DNA from: a virus
Taxonomy: Duplodnaviria > Heunggongvirae > Uroviricota > Caudoviricetes
IMG/VR virus record: IMGVR_UViG_3300028042_000002
Location: 66,050-130,049 of that record
Reading direction: 5' to 3' (one strand)
Length of the DNA stretch: 64,000 bases
Below, piece by piece: positions 4,348 through 20,900 of the stretch (position 1 is the stretch's first letter; each line of letters begins with the position of its first letter). The translations under genes and the position numbers were made by a program. The notes under the pieces are model-generated. The model saw nothing but the letters and a program-made list of their open reading frames with translations, searched no databases and was not told where the DNA came from.

Positions 4348-5084
4348 TAAATTTAATCAAATTAAATAAATAATTATATGTAAATTAACAATACAGTTAA
4401 TATTTATTACATTATGGCTTACGCCTGCGTGTGATAATTCAAAGAAATAAAGTTAATTACATTATTAAGCTATTTAAAGTGGTTAAATAATTTAAATATA
4501 GCCTACTATCAATTTAATATAATAATTCCATTTAAGAGCATTTAACCTAATTAAATCGTATATTTACTATGGCGGAAATCTTATCAAATATAAATTAATA
4601 ATAAATAAATATATAATTATAAGAAATATGACTATGAACATAACAAATAATACAATAAACATGATGATATCAAGATAGATACCACTATAAACAATATAGG
4701 TTAAAGAATAATATAATCAAACATTAGAATAATAATAAATTAATATAATAACAATATAGAATAATATTTAAACAATATAGTTCACTATGGTAATGATAGG
4801 AATATAAATCATAAATGATTAACTGCTCTATACAGCAATACTATTATGTTGCTTTTTTTTATTTTTGGAGATGTTGACTAGAATGACAGCTAGACCCCCT
4901 ATATTAGCATTTACTAATGAAAACTTTCGTGGGATTTGACCCAAAATTAGAAATATTACAATGTAAGTTGTTGATTTATAAGTAATATTAAAAATAAATT
5001 AATAAAATATTGACAATTTAACCTGTATTCATATAAATAATGATATAATTAAAATTCTTATTGATAATAATTAAGGTTGATTAA

Positions 5085-5270
5085 ATGAATATTCCAGTTA
5101 AATTGAAAAAAAGTATTAAAGGTCGCCCGCGTATAGAAATTGATATTGATTTAGCAATAAAATATCTAAATGGTGGGTACAATCTTTCGAGTGTGGCGGA
5201 GGAGATGGGAATTGCAAAATCTACATTATGTTTGAAAGTTAAACAATATAAAGAAATCCATAAATCATAA
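5085..5270 (+). CDS. small HTH DNA-binding protein (module copy A)
   Basis: 'KGRPRIEIDIDLAIKYLNGGYNLSSVAEEMGIAKSTL' is a resolvase/IS630/AlpA-like HTH. Paralogs at 18316-18528 and 63163-63402. Confidence 0.6.
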   Translation: MNIPVKLKKSIKGRPRIEIDIDLAIKYLNGGYNLSSVAEEMGIAKSTLCLKVKQYKEIHKS

Positions 5271-5338
5271 ACATAAAAAAGCTAGAAAGGTAATTACATT
5301 TTACCAATCTAGCCAACATGTTCACATTAAATATTACA

Positions 5339-5655
5339 AGGCATCTATCGTAAGAGTCCCTACTTTTGCGAAAGCTCATTTTGGGCATCCCAGCCCAAGT
5401 TCGCGGCAAAAGCTTAACGGGACTAATTATAATCTTCGATGCCCCGATTCGTCCTGCGTCCGTGACGTCTTCGTACAAGTATCGTTTCACTCGATGAACT
5501 ACGACACCACTACCTCAAATGACCTTTACGGCGATGAGAGCTGTTTTTCACCTTCTTCGTCAGTTCACTCTCGTTCTCAACTACGAATGCGCTAAACAGC
5601 ATCGCCTATCGGGGACTAATCGCCTTCGTTTCACTCTCCATGGCGATCAGCGCAT
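5339..5655. other. GC-rich (about 50% GC) noncoding island; candidate structured RNA or origin with TTCACTC and CGGGACTAAT direct repeats
   Basis: Abrupt composition shift. Long imperfect hairpin (ggcatc..gatgcc, agtccc..gggact, cttttgc..gcaaaag). TTCACTC occurs three times. Confidence 0.45.
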
Positions 5656-7003
5656 GAACAAAACTTCTATTAAACATCTTCTTTTAAGCGAATTAAATAA
5701 ATATAAAACTCGTTTATCGGATGAACCATCATTATACATCAATAATACTATTTATAACAAGTTAAAAGTTGTGAATATTAATAATTTTAAGAAGTATTAC
5801 CCAAAATTAACCCGAGTTGAAATCACAAATTTATTATATCTTATTATAAATCATAACTTTATCCATTTAAAGCAAGATGATAAACAAGGTTATAATATCA
5901 TAAAAATTTATGAAGTTTCAGGAATAAACGTGCAAGTTGGCAGAAAGATATTTACTTCTAAATTATTTACCGAACTTTTAAAATTATTACTTGACAATGA
6001 AATTATTATCAAAGTTAAAAATTATCAAAGTAAGTCACACTCCAACCAATATAAATTAAATGATAATATTATTAGCAAGATGACCACATGCCAAGGTAAA
6101 ATTATTAAATTATCGCCATTCGTCCTAAAATATAAAATTAAATTTTGCACATTAAAAATAGTTAAAACTGTTAAAGATGATATATATCCATACAAATATT
6201 TATTATTAAGCACACTAAAAACTTTAAATACTGTCCAATTTCCAACCATTGAAGAAGTTGAAAAACGATTAGATGAGGCTGTTAAAAATGGTGAAAGTAA
6301 CAAAGGTAAAATATATAAAAATTATAATGATTATAGAAATCTTGTTGACAAATCTAAATATACAAACATTCAAAACATTAAAAAAGTGTTTTTATATTTA
6401 ACAACTGGATTGATATTTTCAAGGAGTGAAGAGTTTGGCAGAATTTATACATCATTTAATATGATACCAACTATCACTCGCAATATGTGTAAATTAAATA
6501 ATAATGAATTAGTTGGATTAGATTTTAATGCACTCCATCTTAATATTGCACAATCATTAGCAGTTAAACATTATGACCATGATATTAAAGATTATAATGA
6601 AATTACTCATGATAATATTGCATCCTATATGAAAATATCACGTCAAGAGGTCAAAATAGACAATTTAAGCCTACTTAACCGAAATTTGGAAGATGGGTAC
6701 GACTATAATAATAAACGTTGGGAAAAAGGCTTAATAGGAACTCCTACAGTAAATTACTTTTTAGAGTGCATCCCAGTTTTATATAATTATATTGTACAGA
6801 AAGGCGATAAAGGTATTACAAAATTTCTATTTAATATTGAAACTAAATTGATGGATAAAATTGCTATGAAATTGTTATATAGTGGTATTAATTTTATGTA
6901 TATTTTTGATGAGATAATGGTAGAGTCGAAGTATAAAATTAATGTTAGAAAGTTGATGCTGATGGAAGCTAAAAGAATGTGGATATTGGCAGGAGTTGGA
7001 TAA
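5654..7003 (+). CDS. large conserved protein of the 3-copy module (possible primase/replication-initiator component); start reset to MNKTS
   Basis: About 60% identity to the 61826-63166 ORF. The N-terminal extension in the ORF track lies in the GC island and is not conserved in the paralog. Confidence 0.55.
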   Translation: MNKTSIKHLLLSELNKYKTRLSDEPSLYINNTIYNKLKVVNINNFKKYYPKLTRVEITNLLYLIINHNFIHLKQDDKQGYNIIKIYEVSGINVQVGRKIFTSKLFTELLKLLLDNEIIIKVKNYQSKSHSNQYKLNDNIISKMTTCQGKIIKLSPFVLKYKIKFCTLKIVKTVKDDIYPYKYLLLSTLKTLNTVQFPTIEEVEKRLDEAVKNGESNKGKIYKNYNDYRNLVDKSKYTNIQNIKKVFLYLTTGLIFSRSEEFGRIYTSFNMIPTITRNMCKLNNNELVGLDFNALHLNIAQSLAVKHYDHDIKDYNEITHDNIASYMKISRQEVKIDNLSLLNRNLEDGYDYNNKRWEKGLIGTPTVNYFLECIPVLYNYIVQKGDKGITKFLFNIETKLMDKIAMKLLYSGINFMYIFDEIMVESKYKINVRKLMLMEAKRMWILAGVG

Positions 7004-7072
7004 ATTTTAGACAAAATAAAACCACCTTTTACAGTGGCTTCTGATGATGATTTAAATTTATATACTTATTAT

Positions 7073-7339
7073 TTATTTAATATTTTCTAAATATGACATT
7101 GCATTATCCAATAAATAAATTGGTGTGATATATTCAGAATTTTTACATTCATTCAACCATACTACAGATTTATTGTTAGATCTTGAAATTAATTCAGTTG
7201 AAATATATACACGATGAATAGCGAGACCATTTGATTTATTTGTTTTTGCTGTGTTGAAAAATAAACCTTTATTAGATGCTAATGTTTTAATATTTTCAAT
7301 TTTTAGGTTGATTAATTGTGCGTTAGTTAATGTAGTCAT
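7073..7339 (-). CDS. small early protein, MTTLTN family
   Basis: N-terminus is MTTLTN. Conserved promoter, UTR and SD upstream. Confidence 0.5.
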   Translation of the reverse strand: MTTLTNAQLINLKIENIKTLASNKGLFFNTAKTNKSNGLAIHRVYISTELISRSNNKSVVWLNECKNSEYITPIYLLDNAMSYLENIK

Positions 7340-7389
7340 AATATTTATTCCTGTTAGTTTGGTTTGCTTTATTGCTTAACATGCAAAGA

Positions 7390-7417
7390 AGTATACTCTT
7401 ATTTTCATTATTGTCTA
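7390..7417 (-). promoter_or_regulatory. early sigma70-like promoter (TAGACA-16-TATACT)
   Basis: Part of a conserved cassette. Confidence 0.5.
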
Positions 7418-7493
7418 GTTATTTATTCAATTATTTTAAATGAATTTAATTATTCAACAATATCAACAACTTACCAACTTAGTCATATAATAA

Positions 7494-7501
7494 TATAAAT
7501 A
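7494..7501 (+). promoter_or_regulatory. T4-late-type promoter TATAAATA
   Basis: TATAAATA lies 37 nt upstream of the 7538 ATG, in the conserved cassette 'catataataatataaatattaataacc'. Confidence 0.5.
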
Positions 7502-7537
7502 TTAATAACCATCCTCCAACCATATAATAATATAAAA

Positions 7538-7951
7538 ATGTCCGATAAAATAGCAGAATTCCTTGATATTTCAGAACTGTCAACCATTGATGAAACTACA
7601 CCCATTATGGATATAGTCACTCATACACATAATAATACTGACATAAAATTAAACAGTATTACAGATTATGCCGAAGTTCGAGCCAACCTTAAACGATTAT
7701 CAACAAAAGGTATGCAGGTGATTGATAGTCTTGCTAAAATGGCAATAGAGGCTCAATCTGCTAGAGATTATGAAGTTTTAACATTATCATTAAAGAATTT
7801 AACTGAAATTAATTTAAGTTTATTAGATGTTAATGAGAAAGCTGGTAAATTGTTGATAGATGAACGAATGTTGAATGAAAATGGGAAAGGTGTGGATGAT
7901 GGAACAATTGATGTTACAGTTGAGCAGTTGCAGAAATTATTAAAAGAATAA
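7538..7951 (+). CDS. hypothetical late protein
   Basis: ORF after a late promoter. Hairpin terminator follows. Confidence 0.5.
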   Translation: MSDKIAEFLDISELSTIDETTPIMDIVTHTHNNTDIKLNSITDYAEVRANLKRLSTKGMQVIDSLAKMAIEAQSARDYEVLTLSLKNLTEINLSLLDVNEKAGKLLIDERMLNENGKGVDDGTIDVTVEQLQKLLKE

Positions 7952-7997
7952 AAAACCACCTGTTAAAGTGGCTTGGATAGAGTTTCAAGGGGAACGA

Positions 7998-8273
7998 TTA
8001 TAAAATTTCAATAATATCATCAGCCCATTCATTTAAGGACAAATAAATTTCATTTTTTGGAATATCATTATCTTTAACATATTCCAAAAAATCATCTATT
8101 AAATCAATAAGTTGGCTATGCGAGATTACTTCCATTTTACCATATTCAGTTAATATAATTTCAAGCTCATTAATAAGTTTAATATTTTTATGATTGGATA
8201 TATGGAGAATATTTTTCAGATTATTTAATCTGTTAATTTGGATTTCAATTTTATCGAGTGTTAATGCAGTCAT
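7998..8273 (-). CDS. small acidic early protein (MTALT start)
   Basis: ORF with an N-terminus related to the MTTLTN family. Confidence 0.45.
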   Translation of the reverse strand: MTALTLDKIEIQINRLNNLKNILHISNHKNIKLINELEIILTEYGKMEVISHSQLIDLIDDFLEYVKDNDIPKNEIYLSLNEWADDIIEIL

Positions 8274-8312
8274 AATTTGGCTAGTCCTGTTTAGTATTAG
8301 TTTATTTAATGA

Positions 8313-8504
8313 TTATTTAGTAACAAGCTCAACAAGATTAGTTAAATCTTTATTTGTAATATTATCATTATCAATGTCATTTACTAAATTTTCACATAAT
8401 GATTTAAGTTGTTCAATTTCATCATTAATATTACTAACTTTACGATTTAATTGAATTTTAAGAGTGGTTACTACAATTTTATTACTTTGAGATATTTTAG
8501 TCAT
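8313..8504 (-). CDS. small early protein
   Basis: ORF with the conserved 'cctgttag' SD region upstream. Confidence 0.4.
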   Translation of the reverse strand: MTKISQSNKIVVTTLKIQLNRKVSNINDEIEQLKSLCENLVNDIDNDNITNKDLTNLVELVTK

Positions 8505-8596
8505 AATCTTAATTCCTGTTAGTTGTTTAAGTTGTTTCGATATGAAAGAGTGTACTCTTATAATATCAACAAGTTACCAACTTAGTCATATAATAA

Positions 8597-8604
8597 TATA
8601 AATA
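8597..8604 (+). promoter_or_regulatory. T4-late-type promoter TATAAATA
   Basis: Conserved cassette upstream of 8632. Confidence 0.45.
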
Positions 8605-8631
8605 CTTAATATCACACCGCACTAGCACAAT

Positions 8632-9156
8632 ATGCCATATTTCAGTCAATTTAATAAAATTAATTACACGTTTGACAGTAACCATAAAGCAACCTTAGTT
8701 AATATCACTCAAAATATAATTCTTAAAAATAATCAAATACGTGATACAACTTTATATTTTAATTATAATATTCAAGATGGTGAAAAAGCTGAACATATTT
8801 CTAATAAATTTTATCGTACACCTGAATACCACTACATAATTTTATTATTAAATGACATCATCAACCCATATTTTGACTGGTGTGTAAGCGGACGAGAGTT
8901 AGAAAGTTTTATAAATGATAAATATGGTTCAACCGTAAATGACGTGCATCATTATATAGATTTAGCTGATAATAATAGGCAGATTGATGATTATGATAGT
9001 GTGAAAATTGGAGAAATGGCAACTATACCAGCCAATATATCAATAGTTACAAATAGAGACCATGAAATAGCGTTAAATGAAGGTAGAAGGCTGATAAAAC
9101 TTATCTCAAGTGATTATATTCTTGAGATAGTGGAAGAGTTTGAAGGATTGTTTTAA
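8632..9156 (+). CDS. hypothetical late protein (possibly structural)
   Basis: 174-aa ORF after a late promoter. Confidence 0.5.
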   Translation: MPYFSQFNKINYTFDSNHKATLVNITQNIILKNNQIRDTTLYFNYNIQDGEKAEHISNKFYRTPEYHYIILLLNDIINPYFDWCVSGRELESFINDKYGSTVNDVHHYIDLADNNRQIDDYDSVKIGEMATIPANISIVTNRDHEIALNEGRRLIKLISSDYILEIVEEFEGLF

Positions 9157-9242
9157 CTTTTAGACTATGAAAAGTGACTTTTAGGTTTAAACTGATTAGA
9201 TGAATTACAATTAATTCAACACATTGATTGTCGAGTGATTAT

Positions 9243-9539
9243 TTAAAACGATTTATAACTTTTACATTCAATTACACCATTAATAAAATCTCTATACGTT
9301 TTAATAATATTATTTAATCGAATTTCTTGTACATCAAAATCAATTTCATTTAAATTATATAAAAATCTTTCACAACTTTTATCACCATTTAATAAAATAT
9401 CTATTTCATATGCTACCAAAGTATGATAACCTTTTTCATTTCCCATTGAAATCATCGTGAATATTAACAATTCAAGTTGGTCAATAATTGTATGATTAGA
9501 TGTTTCAACACTTTTAATACATTTTCTTGAGATTTTCAT
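9243..9539 (-). CDS. small early protein
   Basis: ORF with the conserved SD cassette. Confidence 0.45.
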   Translation of the reverse strand: MKISRKCIKSVETSNHTIIDQLELLIFTMISMGNEKGYHTLVAYEIDILLNGDKSCERFLYNLNEIDFDVQEIRLNNIIKTYRDFINGVIECKSYKSF

Positions 9540-9624
9540 AATATTTATTCCTGTTGGTTAATTCAAGTACCTTATTATAATGATTTTTAAGGTAATGTCC
9601 AGATTTATTTAATTATTTTTGAAA

Positions 9625-9918
9625 TTAGATTAAATCTTCGGCAATACTTTCAGCACTATTGTAAACAATTTCATCATCTTCATTGTAATAATAAAAACTA
9701 TCACAACATTGTTCAGTATCATCAATCCAAATTTCATCATCTAAAATATCATCTTTTGGGTCATCAGTTGGACAATATGTATTAGTGCATAAAAATTCAT
9801 ATGTTACTTCACCGTAACCATTAACACCAATTCTTGCTGATGTTGAATTGTTATCCATTAAATCTAAATAAATTTGAGCAACTTGTAATGCAATTTCAGA
9901 GTTTGTTAATGTAGTCAT
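9625..9918 (-). CDS. small acidic Cys-containing early protein, MTTLTN family
   Basis: N-terminus is MTTLTN. Conserved promoter cassette. Confidence 0.5.
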   Translation of the reverse strand: MTTLTNSEIALQVAQIYLDLMDNNSTSARIGVNGYGEVTYEFLCTNTYCPTDDPKDDILDDEIWIDDTEQCCDSFYYYNEDDEIVYNSAESIAEDLI

Positions 9919-9968
9919 AATATTTAATCCTGTTAGTTAGTTAGGCTTTATTGCTTAACTTGGATACT

Positions 9969-9996
9969 ATTATACTCATTTTTTAATACATGTCAA
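9969..9996 (-). promoter_or_regulatory. early sigma70 consensus promoter (TTGACA-16-TATAAT)
   Basis: Minus strand reads TTGACAtgtattaaaaaatgagTATAAT. Identical to the one at 13316-13343. Confidence 0.6.
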
Positions 9997-10070
9997 CTAA
10001 ATTATGAAATTAATTAAAGTTATTTTAATTATCTAATAATATCAACAACTTACAAACAGTCATATAATAA

Positions 10071-10078
10071 TATAAATA
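10071..10078 (+). promoter_or_regulatory. T4-late-type promoter TATAAATA
   Basis: Conserved cassette upstream of 10119. Confidence 0.45.
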
Positions 10079-10118
10079 TTAACAACCATCTCCACACCGT
10101 ATAATAATATAATCAAAT

Positions 10119-10769
10119 ATGGCTACTAATTTTTATTTAAATCATTATGAAAGCAAACCTGAACAAAATTTAATAGAAAGTTTAACTATTGAAGCTATCA
10201 AATATTGGGGAATGGATGTATTTTACCTACCTCGCACCAGTTTAGAACGTGATAATATTTTGGGTGAAGACATTAAAACAGTATTTAAAAATTCTCATAT
10301 GATTGAAGTATATTTTGAAAATGTTGATGGTTTCGAGGGTCAAGGCAACTTTTTATCAACTTTTGGAATGCAAATTAAAGATAATGCAACATTAATTATA
10401 AGTAAATCAAGATTTCAACAAGTTGTATATGGTAAAGTAAGACCAATGGAAGGGGATTTAATTTATTTACCATTATCCAATTCAATATTTGAAATTAATT
10501 TTGTCGAGCATGAGAACCCATTTTATCAAGTTGGTAAATTATTCACATATAAATTAACGTGTGAATTATATACACATAGTCATGAAGATTTTGAAACTGG
10601 TAATGTTAATATAGATGGGATAATGGCGGACTTTGATGATGTTAAAATGGTGAATAGTGCAGATAATATTGATATTCAGAATGAAAGTGATGTAATAGTT
10701 AAGGATATTGAAAATCCTAAAGATGAATTTGAGAATATTGCGGATAATGACCCATTTAATGGATTTTAG
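10119..10769 (+). CDS. hypothetical late protein (possibly virion-associated)
   Basis: 216-aa ORF after a late promoter. Confidence 0.5.
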   Translation: MATNFYLNHYESKPEQNLIESLTIEAIKYWGMDVFYLPRTSLERDNILGEDIKTVFKNSHMIEVYFENVDGFEGQGNFLSTFGMQIKDNATLIISKSRFQQVVYGKVRPMEGDLIYLPLSNSIFEINFVEHENPFYQVGKLFTYKLTCELYTHSHEDFETGNVNIDGIMADFDDVKMVNSADNIDIQNESDVIVKDIENPKDEFENIADNDPFNGF

Positions 10770-10774
10770 GCAAA

Positions 10775-10800
10775 ATAAAACCACCTGTTAAAGTGGTTTC
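10775..10800. terminator. bidirectional hairpin terminator (AAACCAC-loop-GTGGTTT)
   Basis: Stem aaaccac/gtggttt with a T-run on the minus strand. Member of a recurring hairpin family. Confidence 0.5.
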
Positions 10801-10828
10801 ATGATGTTTCACTTGGAATAATTAATAA

Positions 10829-11419
10829 TTATAAATTCATTAAACTTTTTAAATCATCATTTGCAACGGCTAATTTCATTGCTTCAAGTTTATCATTTTG
10901 TAATTTTACAATTTCTTCTTGTTGATTAATGATTTTATTTACAAGTTGTTGTTCCATATCAGATAATTCAACTTTAGTTGTTACTTCTTCGTCATTATTA
11001 AACATTTTATCAAATTCAATCATGAATTCATTAATAATTGAATATAGTGCATCATCCAAAGTATTCCATTTTTCTTCACAATCCATTGTTGGTTTCTGAT
11101 AATTATCATTAGTAATTTCTTCATTATCATTTTCCCAATCTTCAAAAAATTGTTTATTATCTAATTCAATATTAAACCTTTTCATAATTTTTAACAAGTT
11201 AATGCCACTTTCACTATTTGATAATTCACTCATTTCAAAAAGATTAATCATTTCATTATGTAAAGTTAATTCTTCAACATTAGCACCAAAACACCCATTT
11301 CCATTGGTATCACAACCATTTGAGTAATATTGATAATGTCCACCCTTATTTACTTGATTTACATAATTTGATAATAAAGTTTCTAAACGAGTTGTTTCAG
11401 TTGTAGTTAATGTAGTCAT
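10829..11419 (-). CDS. acidic early protein, MTTLTT family
   Basis: N-terminus is MTTLTTTE. Conserved cassette upstream. Confidence 0.5.
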   Translation of the reverse strand: MTTLTTTETTRLETLLSNYVNQVNKGGHYQYYSNGCDTNGNGCFGANVEELTLHNEMINLFEMSELSNSESGINLLKIMKRFNIELDNKQFFEDWENDNEEITNDNYQKPTMDCEEKWNTLDDALYSIINEFMIEFDKMFNNDEEVTTKVELSDMEQQLVNKIINQQEEIVKLQNDKLEAMKLAVANDDLKSLMNL

Positions 11420-11471
11420 AATATTTATTCCTGTTAGTTAATTAGTTGTTTAAGTTGCTTCGATATAAAAG

Positions 11472-11499
11472 AGTATACTCCCATTTTCACTATTGTCTA
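11472..11499 (-). promoter_or_regulatory. early promoter (TAGACA-16-TATACT)
   Basis: Conserved cassette. Confidence 0.5.
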
Positions 11500-11621
11500 G
11501 TTATTTATTCAATTATTTTAAAATAAATTAATTATCTAATAATATCAACAAGTTACCAACTTAGTCATATAATAATATAAATATTAATAACCATCAAATC
11601 ACTTTATAATAATATAAAACT

Positions 11622-11909
11622 ATGTCAAAACCTGCTCATCGCACCACCGATTTATGCACTGGTCATTCATGTTACCCGCCACGCCGAAGTAAAACAGGTT
11701 CACCAGATGTCATAATAAATGATAAATTGGCTCATAGATTAGGTGATAGTTGGAATACTCATTCATGTGGGAGGTATGGTCATAAAGGTGAAACTGTAAC
11801 CGCATCTATGTATGTTATTATAAATGATAAAGGGTGCGCACGAATTGGGGATGATGTGAGTTGTGGTAGTGTGATAATGACAGGTTCAAATGATGTTATA
11901 GTTGATTAA
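11622..11909 (+). CDS. gp5.4: PAAR-repeat tail-spike tip protein (T4 gp5.4-like)
   Basis: 95 aa. PAAR-like motifs: 'AHRLGDSW', 'ARIGDDVSCGSVIMTGSNDVIV'. Cys/His-rich. Late promoter upstream. Confidence 0.7.
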   Translation: MSKPAHRTTDLCTGHSCYPPRRSKTGSPDVIINDKLAHRLGDSWNTHSCGRYGHKGETVTASMYVIINDKGCARIGDDVSCGSVIMTGSNDVIVD

Positions 11910-11911
11910 TA

Positions 11912-11940
11912 AAAACCATCATAAAAGGTGGTTTTTTTAT
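11912..11940 (+). terminator. rho-independent terminator
   Basis: aaaacca-N10-tggtttt followed by a T-run. Confidence 0.55.
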
Positions 11941-11957
11941 TGAAAAATAATTATTAA

Positions 11958-12650
11958 TTATCTAGCTAACATTACATATCTAGCATAATCATAACCTTGT
12001 GTATCAATATAAATAGTTTCTCTGTCTGTTGATACTAATGCAAATCCTGTCCAATAATCAATATTATCAGTTTCTTCATTATAACCATCATCAATATATG
12101 AAACATTAAACTTTTTACGACTTTTAAGTAAATTATTTACAATTTTATCATATTTTTTAGTTTTAACATTGATAATTTTAATCACTTTAAATTTAGTTTC
12201 AATGAATTTCTGCTCACATTCAAACCGAACCTCACCAATTGTACAATTTTTATTTAACCATGGATTTTTAACATTAACAATTTGATTAAGTTGTGGTAAA
12301 TATGATACACATTCACAATTTTGTAATGCTTCTGTACGGTTAATTCTATATAAATCTTTAGCTTTTTGTTCATCATCTTCCCGCTTCCAAATTTTAAATA
12401 AAAATTCATATTCAGTATCTAAAATATTTTGAAGATTAACTTTAACATCAGCTAAAGTTTTAAATGTCTCTAAATATCCCATACCATTCATTAAATATTC
12501 TTTAGTATCAGGTTTTAAATTAAAAAATATACACCAACCTCCAAATTGTTTTTGGATATAAACATCGGCGAAATATTTTGTGTCTTGAGTTTCATATTTA
12601 CAACTGCTTTCATCATATTTAGCTTTAATTCTAGTATAAGTACGTTTCAT
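11958..12650 (-). CDS. hypothetical protein
   Basis: 230-aa ORF with an early promoter cassette upstream. Confidence 0.5.
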   Translation of the reverse strand: MKRTYTRIKAKYDESSCKYETQDTKYFADVYIQKQFGGWCIFFNLKPDTKEYLMNGMGYLETFKTLADVKVNLQNILDTEYEFLFKIWKREDDEQKAKDLYRINRTEALQNCECVSYLPQLNQIVNVKNPWLNKNCTIGEVRFECEQKFIETKFKVIKIINVKTKKYDKIVNNLLKSRKKFNVSYIDDGYNEETDNIDYWTGFALVSTDRETIYIDTQGYDYARYVMLAR

Positions 12651-12801
12651 AATTTTTAATCCTGTTAGGTTGCGGTTAAAAAGTTAACTAATTTGCTTAA
12701 CTTGGATACTATTATACTCATATTTTAACTATTATCTAGTTATTTATTCAATTATTTTAAAATGAATTTAATTATTCAACAATATCAACAACTTACCCTC
12801 A

Positions 12802-13197
12802 TTATCTCAACCTTTGCAAATATAAATTAGTTGTAATATTATCAATTTGATTAAATATTTTATATACTATCTCAATATTATAACCATCGACACCGTCCGC
12901 AAATACATCAATTTTTATTAAATTTATTCTATTTATATACTTATTAATAAGAAAATCCAAACTAGATTTAATAGACAATGCTGTTATGGTGGTTGCAGGC
13001 TCAAATAATAATGATTTCAATGATTTACTATAATCAATATTAAATTTAAAATCACGATAATCAGACATAATTATATGTTTTAATTGTCTATTTATAGATG
13101 TTTCATTGGTTAAAATATTGATATCATTGTTAAGCGGGTGTACATTGAAATTTAAATCCACGTCTGTATATATAATAGAGTTGATATTATTGGGCAT
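12802..13197 (-). CDS. gp25: baseplate wedge protein, gp25/GPW-like
   Basis: The pattern 'YTDVDLNF..HPL..DI..L.N..SI..SLK.LL..' and 'LLFEP...INRINLIKIDV' resembles the T4 gp25 family. Late promoter on the minus strand upstream. Confidence 0.5.
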   Translation of the reverse strand: MPNNINSIIYTDVDLNFNVHPLNNDINILTNETSINRQLKHIIMSDYRDFKFNIDYSKSLKSLLFEPATTITALSIKSSLDFLINKYINRINLIKIDVFADGVDGYNIEIVYKIFNQIDNITTNLYLQRLR

Positions 13198-13233
13198 ATT
13201 GCGATAAGAAATAAGGTGATTAGAGGTTATTAA

Positions 13234-13241
13234 TATTTATA
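13234..13241 (-). promoter_or_regulatory. T4-late-type promoter TATAAATA (minus strand)
   Basis: The reverse complement tatttata is followed by 'ttaataacc', as in the other cassettes. Confidence 0.45.
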
Positions 13242-13315
13242 TTATTATAAATTTGATTGTAAGTTGTTGATATTATTAGATATTTAAATTCATTTAAAAT
13301 AATTGAATAATTTAG

Positions 13316-13343
13316 TTGACATGTATTAAAAAATGAGTATAAT
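13316..13343 (+). promoter_or_regulatory. early sigma70 consensus promoter
   Basis: TTGACAtgtattaaaaaatgagTATAAT, followed by the conserved leader 'agtatccaagttaagca' and an AGGAAT SD. Confidence 0.6.
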
Positions 13344-13394
13344 AGTATCCAAGTTAAGCAGTAACCAATTAATCAACTAACAGGAATAATTATT

Positions 13395-13535
13395 ATGAAC
13401 ATGAATAACTTTGTTAAAATGGCGTTAGAAACTGCAATTGAAATTACAGGTAAAGATGGTAAAGATGAAGAAACACAAAAAATTGCATTTGAATTAGCAT
13501 GTGTAATGATGGCTGATGAATTAGCAAATAATTAA
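13395..13535 (+). CDS. small ORF (about 46 aa) upstream of parB-like gene; not in ORF track
   Basis: ATG 8 nt after the AGGAAT SD. Encodes 'MNMNNFVKMALETAIEITGKDGKDEETQKIAFELACVMMADELANN'. Confidence 0.35.
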   Translation: MNMNNFVKMALETAIEITGKDGKDEETQKIAFELACVMMADELANN

Positions 13536-13622
13536 ATAACTATTGACAGTACCTTAAAAATCATTATAATAAGGTACTTGAAACATTAAGTAACAATTAA
13601 CTAACTAACAGGAATTAATAAA

Positions 13623-14516
13623 ATGGCTACACAAATCAAAGGTTTAATCGGTGGTACTCGTGCAACTAACTTTTTCAAAATTGACCCAGAATTAATTATT
13701 ATTCAAGAAGGGTTTAATCCTCGCGATAGTTCTAACATTGACCCACTTGAATTATATGAAAGTATTAAAGAAAATGGTGTAGTATCTCCACTTATCATCA
13801 AATTAGATAAAGACGGTAATGTACTTTTAGTTGACGGTGAACGTAGATTAACTACGGTTTTAAAATTGATTGAAGATGGTGTAGACATTCAATCTGTGCC
13901 ATGTTTAAAAATTAACAAATCTCAAGATAACGAAGTTGATTTGTTAATGATGGCAATGATTGCAAACGATAGCAAACAATTAACACCATTAGAATTTAGT
14001 GAGACCTTCGCTAGATTGTTAAAATATGGGTTAAAACCTGCTGAAATTGCTAAAAAAGTAGGTAAAAGTCGGGGATGGGTTGATAATATGATTATCTTAA
14101 ATAACCTTAATCCATCTTTGAAACAAGAATTAAGAAATGGTGTAATTACGTTAAATATTGCGTTGGATATTGTACGTGAAAATCAAGGTGATTATGAAGC
14201 CCAAAATGAAGATTTTAAAATCATTACTGAAAATGCTGAAATTATTACTGAAACTGTAATAAATGAAGATAATGAACCAGTTGAAAAAGTTGTTAAAACT
14301 AAATTATATTCAAAAGGGTCAATGAAGCCTGTTAAATTGGGTGTTGCTAAAGAAATTCTTAAGGCAGTTGCATTCAATGATGAAGAATTAGAAGATTTAG
14401 CCAATCTTAAACAACTTATTGATAAATATACAACCGATGATAAAAGTATTTCGAATGTTGAAATGAAAGCATTTGCACTTGGAATGATGGCGGCTAAAGG
14501 TAAATATATGGTTTAA
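13623..14516 (+). CDS. parB: ParB-like nuclease/partition domain protein
   Basis: N-terminal ParB box 'VDGERRLTTV', then an HTH 'KPAEIAKKVGKSRGWVDNMIIL'. 297 aa. Confidence 0.7.
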   Translation: MATQIKGLIGGTRATNFFKIDPELIIIQEGFNPRDSSNIDPLELYESIKENGVVSPLIIKLDKDGNVLLVDGERRLTTVLKLIEDGVDIQSVPCLKINKSQDNEVDLLMMAMIANDSKQLTPLEFSETFARLLKYGLKPAEIAKKVGKSRGWVDNMIILNNLNPSLKQELRNGVITLNIALDIVRENQGDYEAQNEDFKIITENAEIITETVINEDNEPVEKVVKTKLYSKGSMKPVKLGVAKEILKAVAFNDEELEDLANLKQLIDKYTTDDKSISNVEMKAFALGMMAAKGKYMV

Positions 14517-14535
14517 AAAAAGATTGAAAGAATTG

Positions 14536-14561
14536 TACACTTTGATAATAATGTTAAAGTG
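14536..14561 (+). repeat. stem-loop ACACTTT-N12-AAAGTGT in a repeated regulatory cassette (second copy at 14936-14960)
   Basis: Perfect 7-bp inverted repeat. Both copies are followed by 'ttaaaaatataggaataaattATGaaa'. Confidence 0.5.
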
Positions 14562-14600
14562 TAATTATGATGTGTTAATTTAAAAATATAGGAATAAATT

Positions 14601-14918
14601 ATGAAACCTCAATACGTTAATATCATATTAACATTTGCAATTTTACCATTTTTATTAATTATGGCAAAAGTATATAATATAATTGAAGCTGAACGATTGG
14701 CTATTGCATTATTAATAGCATTCTCAATATCATTTATTGTTTTGGTATACAGTAAACATTTTAAAAATTATGAATATCAATCTAATAATTATAAATTAAT
14801 TTATTTTGGGTTAATATGTATTATTTTGTTAATGTGGGGATGGTATTTTACGTTTACATTATTAACATTTTCAATACTTTCGGCGTATGGCGATAAATTA
14901 AATAAATCAATCAAATAA
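14601..14918 (+). CDS. small membrane protein (paralog of 15568-15882)
   Basis: 3 predicted TM helices. Shared motif 'YNIIEAERLA'. Confidence 0.5.
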   Translation: MKPQYVNIILTFAILPFLLIMAKVYNIIEAERLAIALLIAFSISFIVLVYSKHFKNYEYQSNNYKLIYFGLICIILLMWGWYFTFTLLTFSILSAYGDKLNKSIK

Positions 14919-14990
14919 TATTAAACTATATAAACACTTTGATAATAATATTGAAGTGTTCCATCAAATTTAAAAATATAGGAATAAATT

Positions 14991-15206
14991 ATGAAAGTCC
15001 CACAAGGTAACATTAAAGTATTATGTACTAATCAAAAAGGTAAATTTATTATTGCCAAAAATACAAACAGTAAAGAATTTAGAATAGTTTGCCCTAGTGA
15101 AACTACTGCTTGGAAATTGCTACAAGAATATGTTTATATTAACTTACAATCTCAAACGTTATTATTCCGTGGTAATGTTTATCAAGTTAAAATTAAAATG
15201 GTGTAA
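14991..15206 (+). CDS. hypothetical small protein
   Basis: ORF after the second stem-loop cassette. Confidence 0.4.
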   Translation: MKVPQGNIKVLCTNQKGKFIIAKNTNSKEFRIVCPSETTAWKLLQEYVYINLQSQTLLFRGNVYQVKIKMV

Positions 15207-15211
15207 TAAAA

Positions 15212-15592
15212 ATGAATATATTTGAGCAGTTTTATATTGATACCAATAAACCAGTTTACCATCATGAAAATAAAAAATATTATGATGTTAATAATACACT
15301 TTATGAATTTGATGATATTGAATGCACGTTAACAGAAATTTTAATGGTTCAACAAATTCATAATATTGACGTATTGGAATTTATTATTGAAAATGAATAT
15401 ATTATTAGTGGTATTTATTATGGGGAATATGGTGTACTTATTCATAATCCTGATGCACATGAAATTTTATTATATATTAGAAATTATCGTAATAAAGTTG
15501 AAGCGACTGTCAAATCATATAAAGAATTAAATTATGAAATTAATCCACTTAAAAAATATCAAAACTTTTGGAACTTGCGGAGAATTACCTAA
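15212..15592 (+). CDS. hypothetical protein
   Basis: 126-aa ORF. Confidence 0.45.
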   Translation: MNIFEQFYIDTNKPVYHHENKKYYDVNNTLYEFDDIECTLTEILMVQQIHNIDVLEFIIENEYIISGIYYGEYGVLIHNPDAHEILLYIRNYRNKVEATVKSYKELNYEINPLKKYQNFWNLRRIT

Positions 15593-15882
15593 CAATGAAA
15601 ATATTATTTAAACAATCATTAATTTACACCACAATAACCATTTTACTATTTAGTTCACATTTTTATAATATTATAGAAGTTGAACGGTTGGCAATGGTTA
15701 TAATTTGGATATATTCGTTGACTTTTATGGATGATGATATAGACGATATCCCATATTTCACATTAGTATATTTTTATTTATTATTAATCCCATTGGCAAT
15801 GTTTGGGTGGTGGTTTACATTAACATTATTATTAATTTCATTGGCAATCAATTCAGATATTGAGGCGTTTACAAATGATTAA
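15568..15882 (+). CDS. small membrane protein (paralog of 14601-14918); true start probably downstream of 15592
   Basis: 'YNIIEVERLAM' and a Trp-rich TM segment shared with the paralog. Confidence 0.45.
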   Translation: MELAENYLTMKILFKQSLIYTTITILLFSSHFYNIIEVERLAMVIIWIYSLTFMDDDIDDIPYFTLVYFYLLLIPLAMFGWWFTLTLLLISLAINSDIEAFTND

Positions 15883-16084
15883 ACTAACCCACAATCAAAA
15901 TTATTTATTATACATTGGAAGAATACCTAATCATTGCAATTATGATGCCATCCGTGAATTATTTAAAGACCAACACGATGGTACAAGATTTACGGTTGAG
16001 TACTGTAAGCAAAATAAAATTAAGATTTTAGACTGTCGCATTCCTATTAAATGTAAACCAATTAAAGAAGGTAATAAAATATGA
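15860..16084 (+). CDS. hypothetical small protein
   Basis: ORF. Confidence 0.35.
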   Translation: MRRLQMIKLTHNQNYLLYIGRIPNHCNYDAIRELFKDQHDGTRFTVEYCKQNKIKILDCRIPIKCKPIKEGNKI

Positions 16085-16235
16085 AACCAACAGAACAATC
16101 ATTATTAGTAACAGTAAATATAATGTTAAAATGTGGTACAATTGCCACTTTTGGAACGTTTAAAAGTTTAACTTATGATAAGCAACAATATAAAGATTTT
16201 ATCAAAAAGTATCCAATTAGCTGGTTATCATTTAA

Positions 16236-16478
16236 ATGAGCAGTCAATCAAAATTAGAAAGCCTTGTCGAAATTTCAATTAATATTTTCAGTGGGTTTAT
16301 ATTATCATTATTGATATGGATATATATTATCACACCGTATTATGATATTAATGTTACCATGCATGAAAATTTATCAATTACTGGTATATTCACCATAGCG
16401 GCAGTCATTCGTGGCTACTTTTGGCGAAGGTTTTTTAACAATAAACTACATAAAATTATTATTAAATGGTTAAAATAA
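16236..16478 (+). CDS. small membrane protein
   Basis: 2 TM helices. Confidence 0.4.
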   Translation: MSSQSKLESLVEISINIFSGFILSLLIWIYIITPYYDINVTMHENLSITGIFTIAAVIRGYFWRRFFNNKLHKIIIKWLK

Positions 16479-16479
16479 T

Positions 16480-16773
16480 ATGAATATAATTGATATAGAA
16501 CGTGCTATTGATAATGCTAAATATGAAATTATCCAAACGTGGCAACTTAAAATTACTATAACTAAAGATTTAGATTTTATTTTTAAAGTGGCGCAAGGTA
16601 ATGAAAATAGATATCATTTTAACGAGATTATAAAAAGTATATTAAATGATAAAAAAGTAATAAACTGTGATGATACATTACATGGCACATTATATCCAAC
16701 AAGTTCAATGGTATCATTATTTACTCGAAAGGGTGGAATTAAATATTATGTTACAACGGTTAAAATAATATGA
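16480..16773 (+). CDS. hypothetical protein
   Basis: ORF, translationally coupled. Confidence 0.4.
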   Translation: MNIIDIERAIDNAKYEIIQTWQLKITITKDLDFIFKVAQGNENRYHFNEIIKSILNDKKVINCDDTLHGTLYPTSSMVSLFTRKGGIKYYVTTVKII

Positions 16774-16961
16774 AATTATCAGAATTTAATAAAAGTAATG
16801 AAGATGCAAATCATCCATGTTATTTATGTAGAAATAGAATTATACATGATAATAAATATTGTAATTTTCATCCTAAATACGAACCTCATTGTATAATGTT
16901 GGTGTCACCATTTGAATTTTTAAATATGAATAAACTTTGTGATGCTATATCCTCTTCTTAA
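16770..16961 (+). CDS. small Cys/His-rich protein
   Basis: 'CYLC...CNFH' zinc-ribbon-like. Confidence 0.35.
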   Translation: MKLSEFNKSNEDANHPCYLCRNRIIHDNKYCNFHPKYEPHCIMLVSPFEFLNMNKLCDAISSS

Positions 16962-17400
16962 TACCTAATTCATATTCAGTCATTATCTTAAAATTTATGC
17001 CATGTTTAGTACAATATTCATTGGCATATTTCCATTTATCAGTATTCTTACGATAAGTCAATAATTCTTTTAATAATATTACTTTACGTTTACCTTTTTT
17101 TGGAACTGGTTCAATAGTTTCATGATATGGCTTAACTTCGATTAAATCTACTACAATTTCATCACTTTTATTACGATATTTTACTATAAAATCAGGGAAA
17201 TAACGTCTAACCTTTTTATCAACAGATGAATAATATCTTATTACTATGGTTTCACTACCCCACTCTAGGATATTTGGGTCTATGTCAAATCGTACCATCA
17301 ATTTCAATTCCCATGATGATCTATAGATTATATTTTTAACATTGCCTTTATATTTATCAGGATTTGAAGGTGTAAATCGACCTTTTTTAGCTTTATTCAT
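16945..17400 (-). CDS. PD-(D/E)xK-type nuclease-like protein (possible free-standing homing endonuclease)
   Basis: 'YFPDFIV...DLIEVKP' is a D...E.K motif. Lone minus-strand gene after plus-strand genes. Confidence 0.4.
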   Translation of the reverse strand: MNKAKKGRFTPSNPDKYKGNVKNIIYRSSWELKLMVRFDIDPNILEWGSETIVIRYYSSVDKKVRRYFPDFIVKYRNKSDEIVVDLIEVKPYHETIEPVPKKGKRKVILLKELLTYRKNTDKWKYANEYCTKHGINFKIMTEYELGIKKRI

Positions 17401-17628
17401 AATAATATTTATAATTATTTAATGGTTTAAATTTAATAATGATTTTAAAGTGGATAAGTTATTGAATACTATTTATTACTATGAAAAGATAAAACCTGCG
17501 TGTGATAATTCAAAGGCATTACTATATATTAATATAAATTTAGTACTGGATTAATATTGGGAATGGTTTTAAATTGGTTAATGTGTTAATAATATTTATT
17601 AAAATTATAATGTAATCCAGTTGAACAA

Positions 17629-17952
17629 TATTTATTACTATGGACGCTTCGCTTAGGTGTGCAAAATTCAAGGCATTATGATAAATTATTAGTTGATTAA
17701 TATTAAGCCATTTAAGCCAGTTGAATTATAATATCTACTACTTACTATTACTTTATGATTATGATTAAATTTAGCAATGGTTTTATAGTTGTTTGATATG
17801 GTAAAAGTTAGGTCATTATATTACATTGTAAGAATTGTATAATATTTATCAAAATTAATTAATATTAATAGAAGTAAGTCAAGTGGAAAATGTAATCAAT
17901 ATTATTCTTTCGAATTATCACACCAAAGCGAAGCGTCTAAAGTAATAAATTA
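17629..17952. repeat. about 320-bp noncoding element bounded by 45-bp inverted repeats (ATTTATTACT.TGGACGCTTCGCTTAGGTGTG.AAATTC); related direct copies at 17471-17521 and 4400-4445
   Basis: 17642-17661 'ggacgcttcgcttaggtgtg' pairs with 17921-17940 'cacaccaaagcgaagcgtc'. No ORF inside. Confidence 0.5.
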
Positions 17953-17969
17953 GTAATATGACCATTAAA

Positions 17970-18218
17970 GGGTCATTAATATTAAAATGGGTCATTGTCT
18001 CTAGCTGTTGATGTTATTAGTGTTTACTATACATAATGACCTAATGACCATATAAATTAATAAATATAATAATAATATAGTAGTAGTAAAACATATAACG
18101 TAAGTTGAATGGATATTATAGTCATTGGGTCATAATAACATATAAGTAGTTGATTTATATCATGTTTATATGATGACCCATTATTAATTTACTAACTATA
18201 TTAAATTGAAAGGGTCAC
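17970..18218. promoter_or_regulatory. cluster of at least 7 GGGTCA(T)/TGACC(C) repeats upstream of HTH gene (candidate operator/iteron array)
   Basis: Motif copies at 17970, 17989, 18035 (rc), 18044 (rc), 18127, 18175 (rc), 18212. Confidence 0.4.
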
Positions 18219-18315
18219 TAAATAATTTATATTGAAGATATTTATAATTTATTAAAGGTAATAATCATATTTATTATAAATACTGTTATAATAGAGTTTC
18301 ATAATAAAACGATAG

Positions 18316-18528
18316 GTGATAAAAATGGCTTTAGATGTTAATAAATTAGTAAAAAATATAAAAGGTGCAGGAGCTTATAAAGATGTTGATATGGTGGAGA
18401 TTATGGAGTTAAAGAAACAAGGTTACACATATTCAAGTATGGCAGAGCAATTAGGTATCACAAAAGTTACACTTTCTAGGAAAGTTGCAGAATATAAAAA
18501 AGAATTATTAAAACGTAAAGGAAATTAA
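18316..18528 (+). CDS. small HTH DNA-binding protein (module copy B)
   Basis: 'QGYTYSSMAEQLGITKVTLSRKVAEYKKE' is paralogous to the 5085 and 63163 proteins. Confidence 0.6.
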   Translation: MIKMALDVNKLVKNIKGAGAYKDVDMVEIMELKKQGYTYSSMAEQLGITKVTLSRKVAEYKKELLKRKGN

Positions 18529-18531
18529 AAC

Positions 18532-19725: not shown

Positions 19726-19739
19726 ACAGGCACATTAAC

Positions 19740-19982
19740 ATGAACCAAAATCAATTAAAAATAATAGAAATTTCTTCATTTACATCATCTTTATATTGTT
19801 CTCAAGTATTATTTATGAATTTTATTAGTAGCAACTTTACCGACTATTTAATATTATTTTTAGCCATTGTACTTACAATTTTAACCATATTAAATTTAAA
19901 ATTAAGAAATGATATCAAGAAATTAGATATGGAATTAGGAGGGTTAGATTTACAACTTAATAATTATGCAAAAAAGTTGTAG
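19740..19982 (+). CDS. small membrane protein
   Basis: One TM segment with a coiled C-terminus. Confidence 0.4.
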   Translation: MNQNQLKIIEISSFTSSLYCSQVLFMNFISSNFTDYLILFLAIVLTILTILNLKLRNDIKKLDMELGGLDLQLNNYAKKL

Positions 19983-20110
19983 TAATTGTCAATGGTGGCA
20001 AAAAGTAAGACAAATTAAAGGTATTTGCAATCGTTATGATTATGGTTGGGTTAATTCTGATTATAATTGTAACGGGTGGCAAAGAATTAAAACTTATAAA
20101 AAGGTAAATT

Positions 20111-20413
20111 ATGATAAAAAATTTAAAAATTATGATTAGTGCAAATAGATTTAAAGGTGATTATAATGATACAATTATTTATGAATGCACCAAACCTAAA
20201 CATATTCATAAATTAATTAATTTTTTTGGAGTTGAAAAAAGTTACGATGATATTGGATATTTTGACGATAATATACCATTATTAGATGATAAAGGTGATA
20301 TTATAATTGATGAGCAAACCCTTAGACATTTAAAAACAGTTGAATTATTATTAAACGATGTGGAAGGTAATTATAATGCAACATATAGTTTGATTGTATT
20401 ACTCAAATATTGA
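20111..20413 (+). CDS. hypothetical protein
   Basis: ORF after an AAAGGTAAAT RBS. Confidence 0.4.
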   Translation: MIKNLKIMISANRFKGDYNDTIIYECTKPKHIHKLINFFGVEKSYDDIGYFDDNIPLLDDKGDIIIDEQTLRHLKTVELLLNDVEGNYNATYSLIVLLKY

Positions 20414-20578
20414 TATATAAAAAAGGTAAATCATGATGAAAATTAAAAAACAATGTAAAAATTGCTCTCATTGGGTTGAAAAATGTGAAATTGGATTATG
20501 TTTAAAGTATCCATACAAATGGACAGATTATAACCATAGTTGTATAAATTATAAACAAGTTAATAGAGGTAATATGTA

Positions 20579-20890: not shown

Positions 20891-20900
20891 GGTAAATACA

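Follow-up and report, generated by a model that had tools for sequence, protein, structure and literature searches.

T4-like genomes serve as the textbook case of a stable, syntenic core, with plasticity confined to accessory islands. How could core virion genes of such a phage come to stand singly, each opposite orphan genes of the other strand? This arrangement is found in a 64,000-nucleotide (nt) stretch (positions 66,050 to 130,049) of the metagenomic record IMGVR_UViG_3300028042_000002, hereafter called the window. The window has a G+C content of about 25% throughout and encodes T4-type DNA polymerase, NrdAB, large terminase, portal, protease, scaffold, major capsid, sheath, and tube proteins, together with gp2, a tube-like protein, and gp4. 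Between about 7.0 and 13.6 kb, its intergenic regions carry copies of a cassette of about 200 bp in which a predicted early promoter and a predicted late promoter point away from each other. In the account that we favor, and consider reasonably probable, these cassettes are paralogous divergent-promoter modules in which each early/late pair is autonomous and which have spread, been homogenized and shuffled, and been used as breakpoints.

A first description of this region, made from the letters alone (the sequence-only reading), had proposed at least six intergenic copies of a near-identical cassette. We confirmed the repeat by reading positions 7000 to 13800, by repeat finding, and by alignment. 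Four copies are complete and two (B and F) are truncated; the term "near-identical" overstates the likeness, since whole-copy identity is 61 to 89% and sub-blocks alone reach 97 to 100%. Along the plus strand, the proposed layout begins with about five codons, the start codon, and the AGGA Shine-Dalgarno sequence of a leftward gene, followed by an unstructured leader of about 50 nt. The middle would hold a sigma70-type early promoter and then an AT-rich spacer of about 75 nt with the block ATATCAACAA(C/G)TTACC, and the right end a T4-type late promoter, TATAAATA, a G-poor leader of about 30 nt, and the start of a rightward late gene.

Cassette A (7340-7537) is complete, with early −35 TAGACA (7417-7412) and −10 TATACT (7395-7390) on the minus strand and, on the plus strand, a conserved block that we call M (7460-7478), TATAAATA (7494-7501), and a proximal duplicate box (7521-7537). 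Also complete are cassettes D (9919-10118), with TTGACA-16-TATAAT at 9996-9969 on the minus strand and the M block (10039-10057), TATAAATA (10071-10078), and proximal box (10098-10115) on the plus strand, and E (11420-11621), with TAGACA-16-TATACT at 11499-11472 on the minus strand and the M block (11542-11560) and TATAAATA (11576-11583) on the plus strand. The fourth complete copy, cassette G (13198-13394), is inverted, as had been noted for positions 13260-13390: TTGACA-16-TATAAT (13316-13343) lies on the plus strand, and the M block (13273-13255) and the TATAAATA predicted to drive the gp25 gene (13241-13234) lie on the minus strand. Cassette B (8505-8631) has an internal deletion of about 75 nt that removes the early −35 and the spacer, leaving the M block (8563-8581) and TATAAATA (8597-8604) intact. 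Cassette F (12651-12801) consists of the early half only (TAGATA-16-TATAAT, 12738-12711, minus strand); its M block (12782-12800) abuts the gp25 stop codon, and the copy ends exactly after ATATCAACAACTTACC, without a late promoter.

Four further copies comprise an early promoter only. Cassettes C (9540-9624, minus strand; TGGACA-16-TATAAT, 9601-9574), between two leftward ORFs, and H (13536-13622, plus strand; TTGACA-16-TATAAT, 13543-13570), upstream of a ParB/KorB-like gene, are 93% identical over 57 nt and carry an early promoter of a second type (type 2). Two relatives on the minus strand, X (1870-1948; TTGACA-16-TATAAT, 1932-1905) and Y (2487-2568; TTGACA-16-TATAAT, 2552-2525), repeat the early part of the cassette at 1883-1948 and 2503-2568, in agreement with the recurrences previously placed at 1893-1945 and 2518-2575. 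The family is limited to this part of the window.

The repeat family is real and far above chance. The M block sequence ATATCAACAASTTACMAAC, with up to three mismatches allowed, has 8 matches against 0.33 expected, 6 of them within cassettes, and the late box CATATAATAATATAAATA has 19 against 6.3 expected. Cassettes A and E share a 153-nt block at 88% identity, D and G a 140-nt block at 89%, and B and E 49 nt at 98%. The alternating pattern could in principle have been created by a metagenome assembler that chimerized or collapsed repeats. The sequence is of metagenomic origin, and an independent ENA assembly of the same phage (ERZ27262682, contig k141_1386850) breaks at a repeat edge, at window position 5352. 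That contig is nevertheless 100% identical to the window over 5352-21909 and spans the entire array; moreover, the copies differ by 11 to 39% and are therefore resolvable, every junction has intact ORFs and correctly spaced signals, and an isolated gp14 gene is found again in a second sample (the relative L083, below). An assembly artifact is on these grounds scarcely credible.

On the early side, the sequence-only reading had assigned a leftward TTGACA-16-TATAAT promoter and a single leader to the cassettes, and both assignments apply to a subset of copies. The sigma70 hexamers match at 12 of 12 positions only in D, G, H, X, and Y; the score is 11 of 12 in C and 10 of 12 in A and E (TAGACA/TATACT) and in F (TAGATA/TATAAT), and B has no acceptable −35. 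The leader AGTATCCAAGTTAAGCA is present in D, F, and G only, with a second leader type in A, B, and E. The proposed Shine-Dalgarno sequence is general: in all eight copies AACAGGAAT is followed, after 7 to 8 nt, by ATG, giving an AGGA ribosome-binding site. The repeat runs about 14 nt into three early ORFs, where ATGACTACATTAAC encodes MTTLT. We considered whether the small ORFs are paralogs and rejected this, as only these first five residues are common to them. A riboswitch or attenuator in the early leaders was likewise rejected, because the leaders, of about 50 nt, are unstructured (fold z-scores of at least −0.5).

The type 2 early promoters (13543-13580 and 9564-9601) are distinguished by an inverted repeat, AGTACCTTA-N13-TAAGGTACT, that brackets the −10; in cassette H, AGTACCTTA and TAAGGTACT form a 9-bp inverted repeat. 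Before the ParB/KorB-like gene (13623-14516) this repeat has a fold z-score of −2.8, and it may be an autoregulatory operator.

On the late side, the cassettes share a 49-nt block, ATATCAACAA(C/G)TTACC...CATATAATAATATAAATA, that ends in the T4 late consensus TATAAATA. In T4, late promoters consist of this motif and depend on gp55, gp33, and gp45. An exact TATAAATA lies 27 to 40 nt before the ATG of the late-gene homologs in cassettes, and the gap from the early −35 to TATAAATA is 74 to 76 nt in A, D, E, and G. Elsewhere in the window, TATAAATA lies 5 to 45 nt upstream of the sheath, portal, scaffold, TerL operon, gp2, and gp4 genes; in all, 18 of its 43 occurrences fall 5 to 60 nt upstream of an ORF starting with ATG, against 2.3 expected (p = 2e-12). 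The rightward late consensus proposed for the cassettes is thus the motif that precedes the canonical late genes of the window. As in T4, it stands in exact form shortly before late genes, inside and outside the cassettes; unlike in T4, the cassette motif is embedded in a conserved block of 49 nt.

Two other candidates for rightward initiation were set aside. The 49-nt block, which the other late promoters of the window lack, holds a −35-like TCAACA that could form a sigma70 promoter, TCAACA-17-TATAAT; its spacer is 15 nt in D and G, and it is probably not selected. As a late promoter, the proximal TATAATAATATAAAA box was rejected: transcription from it would begin within the ORF. This second box copy, CATATAATAATATAAA, stands directly before the ATG in A, D, and E (7521-7537, 10098-10115, and 11603-11619) and is kept before gp14 in a relative with 91% protein identity (L083, positions 36-50); it may be an A/U-rich translation element or a decayed duplicate. 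Many late genes, those driven from cassettes included, have G-poor leaders without a Shine-Dalgarno sequence; AGGA is present at every early gene. The distance from TATAAATA to the ATG is only 5 nt for gp4 and 11 nt for gp2 (17400-17413 and 23284-23303; see also 54999-55039), so that leaderless or near-leaderless late mRNAs are predicted there.

Could functional constraint alone account for this likeness, the copies resembling one another through a long consensus of early promoters, leaders, and late promoters, with no role in rearrangement? Parts of the cassette do behave like an extended consensus: the strong sigma70 promoters of the window share AAATAAAT(A/C) before the −35, a TTAAAAAT-type spacer sequence, and the 16-nt spacing; the AACAGGAAT Shine-Dalgarno context is common to all early genes here; and even the relatives L002 and L083 have a TATAATAATATA box before late ATGs. 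However, blocks without a consensus role are 89 to 98% identical (a 42-nt spacer, 98% between A and F; the 140 nt shared by D and G, 89%), the repeat enters coding sequence at both its promoter and its terminator ends, and the truncated copies B and F and the mosaic pattern described below resemble products of recombination. Six other late promoters match the cassettes in TATAAATA only, with no flanking cassette sequence, and the strong early promoter at 55800 (TTGACA-16-TATACT) has little in common with them beyond its hexamers. Because these promoters lack the flanking blocks, the 200-bp similarity points to common descent rather than to a promoter consensus, and we regard constraint alone as unlikely.

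A further alternative takes the conserved blocks outside the promoters as binding sites for a phage regulator, such as the ParB/KorB-like protein encoded at 13623-14516, that would switch early to late expression. Candidate sites are the M block ATATCAACAASTTACC, the central AT-rich palindromes, and the inverted repeat at the type 2 −10. The M block is conserved at 79 to 100%, the best after the late promoter and the Shine-Dalgarno region, and is confined to cassettes; ParB_N, HTH_ParB, and KorB domains are encoded beside the array, and the promoter of that gene contains the 9-bp inverted repeat with a significant fold (z = −2.8). Against this, the M block is not palindromic, its spacing to TATAAATA differs by 2 nt in D and G, the central regions have no structure or symmetry beyond shuffled controls, and nothing links the ParB-like protein to the cassettes; an operator array would be compatible with truncated and mosaic copies and would leave them unexplained. 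We therefore rank this possibility slightly below constraint alone.

The genes between the cassettes are of two kinds. Five are homologs of T4 late genes: a small terminase subunit (gp16-like, 137 amino acids [aa], 7538-7951, plus strand; phrog_445, 1.2e-12), a baseplate wedge protein (gp53-like, 174 aa, 8632-9156, plus strand; phrog_232, 5e-36; PF11246), the neck protein gp14 (216 aa, 10119-10769, plus strand; PF11649, 1e-39), a PAAR spike tip protein (gp5.4-like, 95 aa, 11622-11909, plus strand), and a second baseplate wedge protein (gp25-like, 131 aa, 12802-13197, minus strand) that is 46% identical to a PAAR-adjacent gp25 in the relative L089. The gp25 gene is inverted relative to the four others and would be driven from the inverted cassette G. 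Opposite them lie orphan early ORFs on the minus strand: 7073-7339 (88 aa), 9625-9918 (97 aa), and 10829-11419 (196 aa), all three with the N terminus MTTLT; 7998-8273 (91 aa); 8313-8504 (63 aa), downstream of cassette B, the copy without a −35; and 9243-9539 (98 aa). An ORF of 230 aa (11958-12650, minus strand) lies between the PAAR and gp25 genes, and one of 46 aa (13395-13535, plus strand) runs rightward from cassette G. None of the early-side ORFs has a PHROG or Pfam assignment, except for a weak match of the 230-aa ORF. The cassettes had been described as flanked on both sides by unrelated small ORFs within a hyperplastic region. This is accurate for the early side, where the ORFs are orphans, and not for the late side. 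With half of its genes encoding core virion or packaging proteins, the region alternates orphan early genes with core virion genes and is not a classical region of dispensable genes. No tRNAs were found, and positions 1 to 20 kb have no Rfam matches.

Hairpin terminators followed by U-tracts stand at four of the five convergent junctions. Three of them (7018-7041; 7953-7974, AAAACCACCTGTTAAAGTGG; and 10778-10799) belong to one repeat family, AAAACCACCTGTTAAAGTGGTTT, which takes in the last codons of two late genes, gp14 among them (10778-10799). The fourth (11911-11938) is a bidirectional hairpin with A- and T-tracts on both sides. In the leftward transcript, G·U pairs strengthen the stems (−8.9 to −13.7 kcal/mol) and a U-tract follows; the hairpin at 7018-7041, for example, is strongest for the leftward, early transcript, with its U-tract after the stem. 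Early transcription should therefore stop before it enters the neighboring late gene in antisense. The fifth junction (9157-9242) has no hairpin, and early transcription crossing it would next reach cassette B, which lacks a −35. These two gaps are consistent with a supply by read-through: transcripts from D or C that continue across gp53 in antisense plausibly serve ORFs 8313-8504 and 7998-8273.

Antisense ORFs are also present far from the array. At 55090-56543, two orphan ORFs of the opposite strand, with the strong sigma70 promoter at 55800, lie between the genes for the gp19 tube and the gp20 portal. The gp19 and gp20 genes are neighbors in T4. Insertion of antisense early genes between late genes may hence be a genome-wide habit, which at this site proceeded without a cassette.

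What relation do the cassette copies have to one another? Their segment-wise identities are discordant. In F, the leader groups with D and G (28 nt are identical to D), the −35 region groups with A and E, and the spacer groups with A (97%). The promoter of G equals that of D (100%), and its spacer is nearest to A; the left part of E groups with A, and three of its spacer sites group with D and G. The four-gamete test fails for 71 of the 210 pairs formed by 21 informative sites, and in a PHI-type permutation neighboring sites are less incompatible than in permuted order (p = 0.0004). These patterns indicate that the copies are mosaics of one another, and the internal deletion of B and the truncation of F at the M-block edge resemble scars of recombination.

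The gp25 segment provides a further indication. The gene and its late promoter are bracketed by two inverted arms of 46 nt (12756-12801 and 13254-13299) that are 85% complementary. A flip of this segment would restore a complete A-type cassette at F and place gp25 on the plus strand like the other four late genes. The mosaic copies, the truncated B and F, and these inverted arms are indirect signs of recombination between copies, which may be ongoing; for T4-type recombination, a stretch of homology shorter than 50 bp is enough (cited in PMC2839356). Lethal deletions are to be expected where direct repeats surround essential genes, and the array is therefore presumably kept by selection. A site-specific invertible segment of the Gin/Hin type was considered for gp25, which has the inverted 46-nt arms, and rejected because no recombinase is encoded among the neighboring ORFs. 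A switch function is not expected of the segment, since gp25 has its own promoter whichever way it lies.

Relatives show how the late genes are ordered elsewhere. In five of them (L001, L002, L084, L085, and L087), whose gp14 proteins are 55 to 68% identical to that of the window, the genes are codirectional in the order gp13-(x)-gp14-gp15-x-gp16, and the gp14 cluster contains neither ORFs of the opposite strand nor repeated cassettes. A search with the PAAR protein found one relative, at 60% identity. In the metagenome-assembled genome (MAG) GCA_027031645.1, the PAAR and gp25 genes abut on the same strand with overlapping stop and start codons; in the window a terminator, the 230-aa early ORF, and cassette F come between them, and gp25 has the inverse orientation. 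The gene order of the window is unlike that of all relatives examined. The dispersal of late genes thus appears to have arisen in the lineage of this phage.

The sole close relative, L083, from sample ERZ23498834 (TREM19-1), is a 1.2-kb fragment whose gp14 gene is 91% identical in aa and about 88% identical in nt. There, gp14 is convergent with an opposite-strand ORF homologous to window ORF 24955-25407, which replaces ORF 10829-11419; this neighbor is a BspA-like repeat protein whose window homolog lies about 15 kb away. Homology between L083 and the window extends from about 13 nt before the gp14 ATG to the stop codon of that gene. The junctions thus appear variable, and the comparison that had been suggested for cassette-mediated gene replacement is favorable in that L083 has a different gp14 neighbor; its basis is one 1.2-kb fragment of one relative. 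ORF 24955-25407 (L083 positions 714-1166) itself has tandem 69-nt repeats, a weak BspA-type leucine-rich-repeat match, and TATAAATA before it.

Megablast found no nucleotide relative of the 7- to 14-kb region among GenBank phages, sensitive blastn gave no match to cassette D or to a G+C-rich stretch of the window, and exact gapped cassette patterns had no match in IMG/VR or JGI metagenomes, collections in which the source contig itself is missing. The window proteins encoded at 44-817 and 1929-2486 matched no record. For ten proteins of the region, the 90% clusters contain only the source contig and its ENA twin. At the protein level the relatives are cyanophage-, pelagiphage-, and phiM12-like, and Campylobacter phages are not among them; the gp14 of the window is at most 48% identical to phiM12-type and cyanophage proteins.

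Early ORFs with their cassettes seem to have been inserted as units between genes that are adjacent in relatives, which would also be expected if the cassette, with or without an early ORF, were itself mobile, either resembling a miniature inverted-repeat transposable element (MITE) or driven into late-gene gaps by a homing endonuclease. The genome has accepted a mobile element of about 300 nt, of a type found in Methylococcales bacteria, 1.7 kb away. Yet the edges of the cassettes have no terminal inverted repeats or target duplications, the flanking ORFs have no nuclease, transposase, recombinase, or homing endonuclease domains, and the cassettes always end at functional start codons on both sides. 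These features make self-mobility very improbable.

Returning to the cassettes as duplicated divergent-promoter modules, we propose that, together with the repeated convergent hairpins, they would cut the 7.0- to 13.6-kb region into self-contained units of 1.2 to 1.5 kb, in each of which a single core late gene faces one to a few orphan early genes on the opposite strand. Early in infection, the host RNA polymerase would fire leftward from the cassettes and halt at a hairpin before running antisense into a late gene; late in infection, polymerase with the phage late sigma factor would fire rightward from TATAAATA. No interaction between the two promoters would be needed, and the "coupling" of early and late promoters in the sequence-only reading amounts to physical adjacency. 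To judge from the mosaicism and the relatives, the module would have been duplicated along with insertions of early ORFs between once-adjacent late genes. Homologous recombination by the phage would keep swapping segments among copies by gene conversion, and the copies would serve as breakpoints for rearrangements such as the inversion of the gp25 unit between its 46-nt inverted cassette arms. More tentatively, a two-way temporal module may have let the phage dismantle virion operons into permutable units, with cassette recombination still active and the M block and type 2 palindromes possibly acting as ParB/KorB operators; we consider this stronger version doubtful.

Several observations weigh against the modular explanation. 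The hexamers of A, E, and F are weakened and B lacks a −35, and the activity of promoters and terminators is predicted from consensus alone. The M block is more conserved than the early hexamers and could have a function of its own rather than reflect neutral homology. Part of the mosaicism could stem from recurrent mutation in AT-rich sequence. In L083, the mere 50 nt upstream of gp14 that the fragment contains show the proximal box and neither TATAAATA nor a recognizable cassette. TATAAATA is not enriched overall (43 found against 49 expected at 25% G+C), so only its position is informative. Finally, the late sigma factor gp55 was not found with PHROGs among about 50 ORFs of the window, including 20 further ORFs in which it was sought; it may be encoded in the half of the approximately 130-kb genome outside the window.

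The closest known systems are the promoter-early stem-loop (PeSL) and PmSL cassettes of T4-type phages, described by Arbiol et al. in 2010 (PMC2839356) and Comeau et al. in 2014 (PMC4122927). In a PeSL, a stem-loop terminator immediately precedes a sigma70-like early promoter, after which come a Shine-Dalgarno sequence and ATG. PeSLs are concentrated in hyperplastic regions, where they flank ORFans that differ among sister phages; recombination among them yields indels and mini-circles, and they are seldom found among structural genes (PMC2839356, PMC4122927). The cassettes described here resemble PeSLs as multicopy composite regulatory sequences of a T4-like genome, with a strong sigma70-like promoter, an AT-rich upstream region, a Shine-Dalgarno sequence, and the start codon of a small ORFan, with degraded or "half" copies near rearrangements, and as proposed patches of homology for the shuffling of modules that are insulated by terminators.

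The differences are as marked. Folding of the 63 to 76 nt upstream of each early −35 revealed no conserved hairpin (z-scores of −1.6 to +1.1); the hairpin lies 0.3 to 1.2 kb away, at the far end of the intervening antisense late gene. The upstream side here carries an opposed late promoter, and the terms "late promoter" and "bidirectional" are absent from Arbiol et al. (PMC2839356). The units bracket essential core virion genes, in contrast to the scarcity of PeSLs in structural regions (PMC4122927), the conserved unit is about 200 bp, and the cassettes are known from the sequence of one metagenomic genome. The PeSL analogy that had been drawn therefore extends to the promoter, Shine-Dalgarno sequence, ATG, and AT-rich upstream part and fails for the defining upstream stem-loop; since one defining feature is missing, we regard the cassettes as PeSL-like in logic and do not file them as PeSLs. 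The PeSL principle, that portable regulation lets modules move, would here be extended to two temporal classes and to essential virion genes.

Campylobacter group II phages CP21 and CP220 (PMC4546147) are also AT-rich T4-related myoviruses with similar repeats between modules whose order differs among relatives; theirs are four large modules with long repeat regions and many transposase and homing endonuclease genes. In this phage, the units consist of single genes and the repeats of promoter cassettes, and the region has no such enzymes. The morons of lambdoid phages are promoter-gene-terminator units. As with morons, each gene here is autonomous, with its own promoter and terminator, and is inserted between neighbors; unlike morons, the autonomous units include core late genes and are built from one repeated two-strand cassette. 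Repeated promoter cassettes that mediate shuffling in T4-type phages are thus already known, and the bidirectional early/late composition, the unit of about 200 bp, the separation of terminator from promoter, and the single holding of core virion genes are new here.

The window contains further repeats. Directly upstream of the probable true start (ATG at 5654) of a 449-aa ORF lies an ORF-less, G+C-rich stretch of about 300 nt (5350-5652), whose left edge coincides exactly with the break in the ENA assembly of the phage (5352). The stretch is about 81% identical (about 98% over its first 130 nt or so) to a multicopy element of about 310 nt that is found in at least seven contigs of an uncultured Methylomonas MAG, in copies 99 to 100% identical to one another, and in two contigs of the methanotrophic gill symbiont of Bathymodiolus platifrons. 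It has a fold z-score of −2.6 and, in searches with 5230-5720 and a bacterial copy, no Rfam family. It looks like a mobile element of MITE or noncoding-RNA type and is a possible clue to a Methylococcales host. The ORF that follows (5654-7003) and ORF 61826-63166 are inverted paralogs, 75% identical in nt over 519 plus 170 nt, with no PHROG or Pfam assignment; duplication of a late structural gene, possibly a fiber gene, is their probable origin.

Long noncoding stretches at 4350-5030 and 17400-18300 have repeat families of their own: positions 4402-4463, 17889-17950, and 17630-17679 have ...GGACGCTTCGCTTAGGTGTG...AATTCAAGGCATTA in common, and short AACAATATAG repeats occur at 4664-4780. These stretches may be small RNAs or origin-like regions. 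Two repeat pairs, 20861-20909/21898-21946 (90%) and 36867-36924/37396-37453 (93%), cover the ribosome-binding regions and first codons of plus-strand genes and look like a shared gene-start module of the same kind as the cassettes.

For an uncultured T4-like lineage with 25% G+C, the analysis defines candidate early and late promoter, leader, and terminator signals. PeSLs were proposed as the engine of accessory plasticity; in this phage, similar cassettes bracket core packaging, neck, and baseplate genes singly. On the stronger version that we consider doubtful, PeSL-type shuffling would extend from accessory regions to the conserved core. If our favored explanation is correct, orphan early genes would have a concrete route into structural clusters. 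Core virion operons could then be dismantled once each gene owns a portable promoter and terminator, and this phage would be a natural example of a "refactored" genome.

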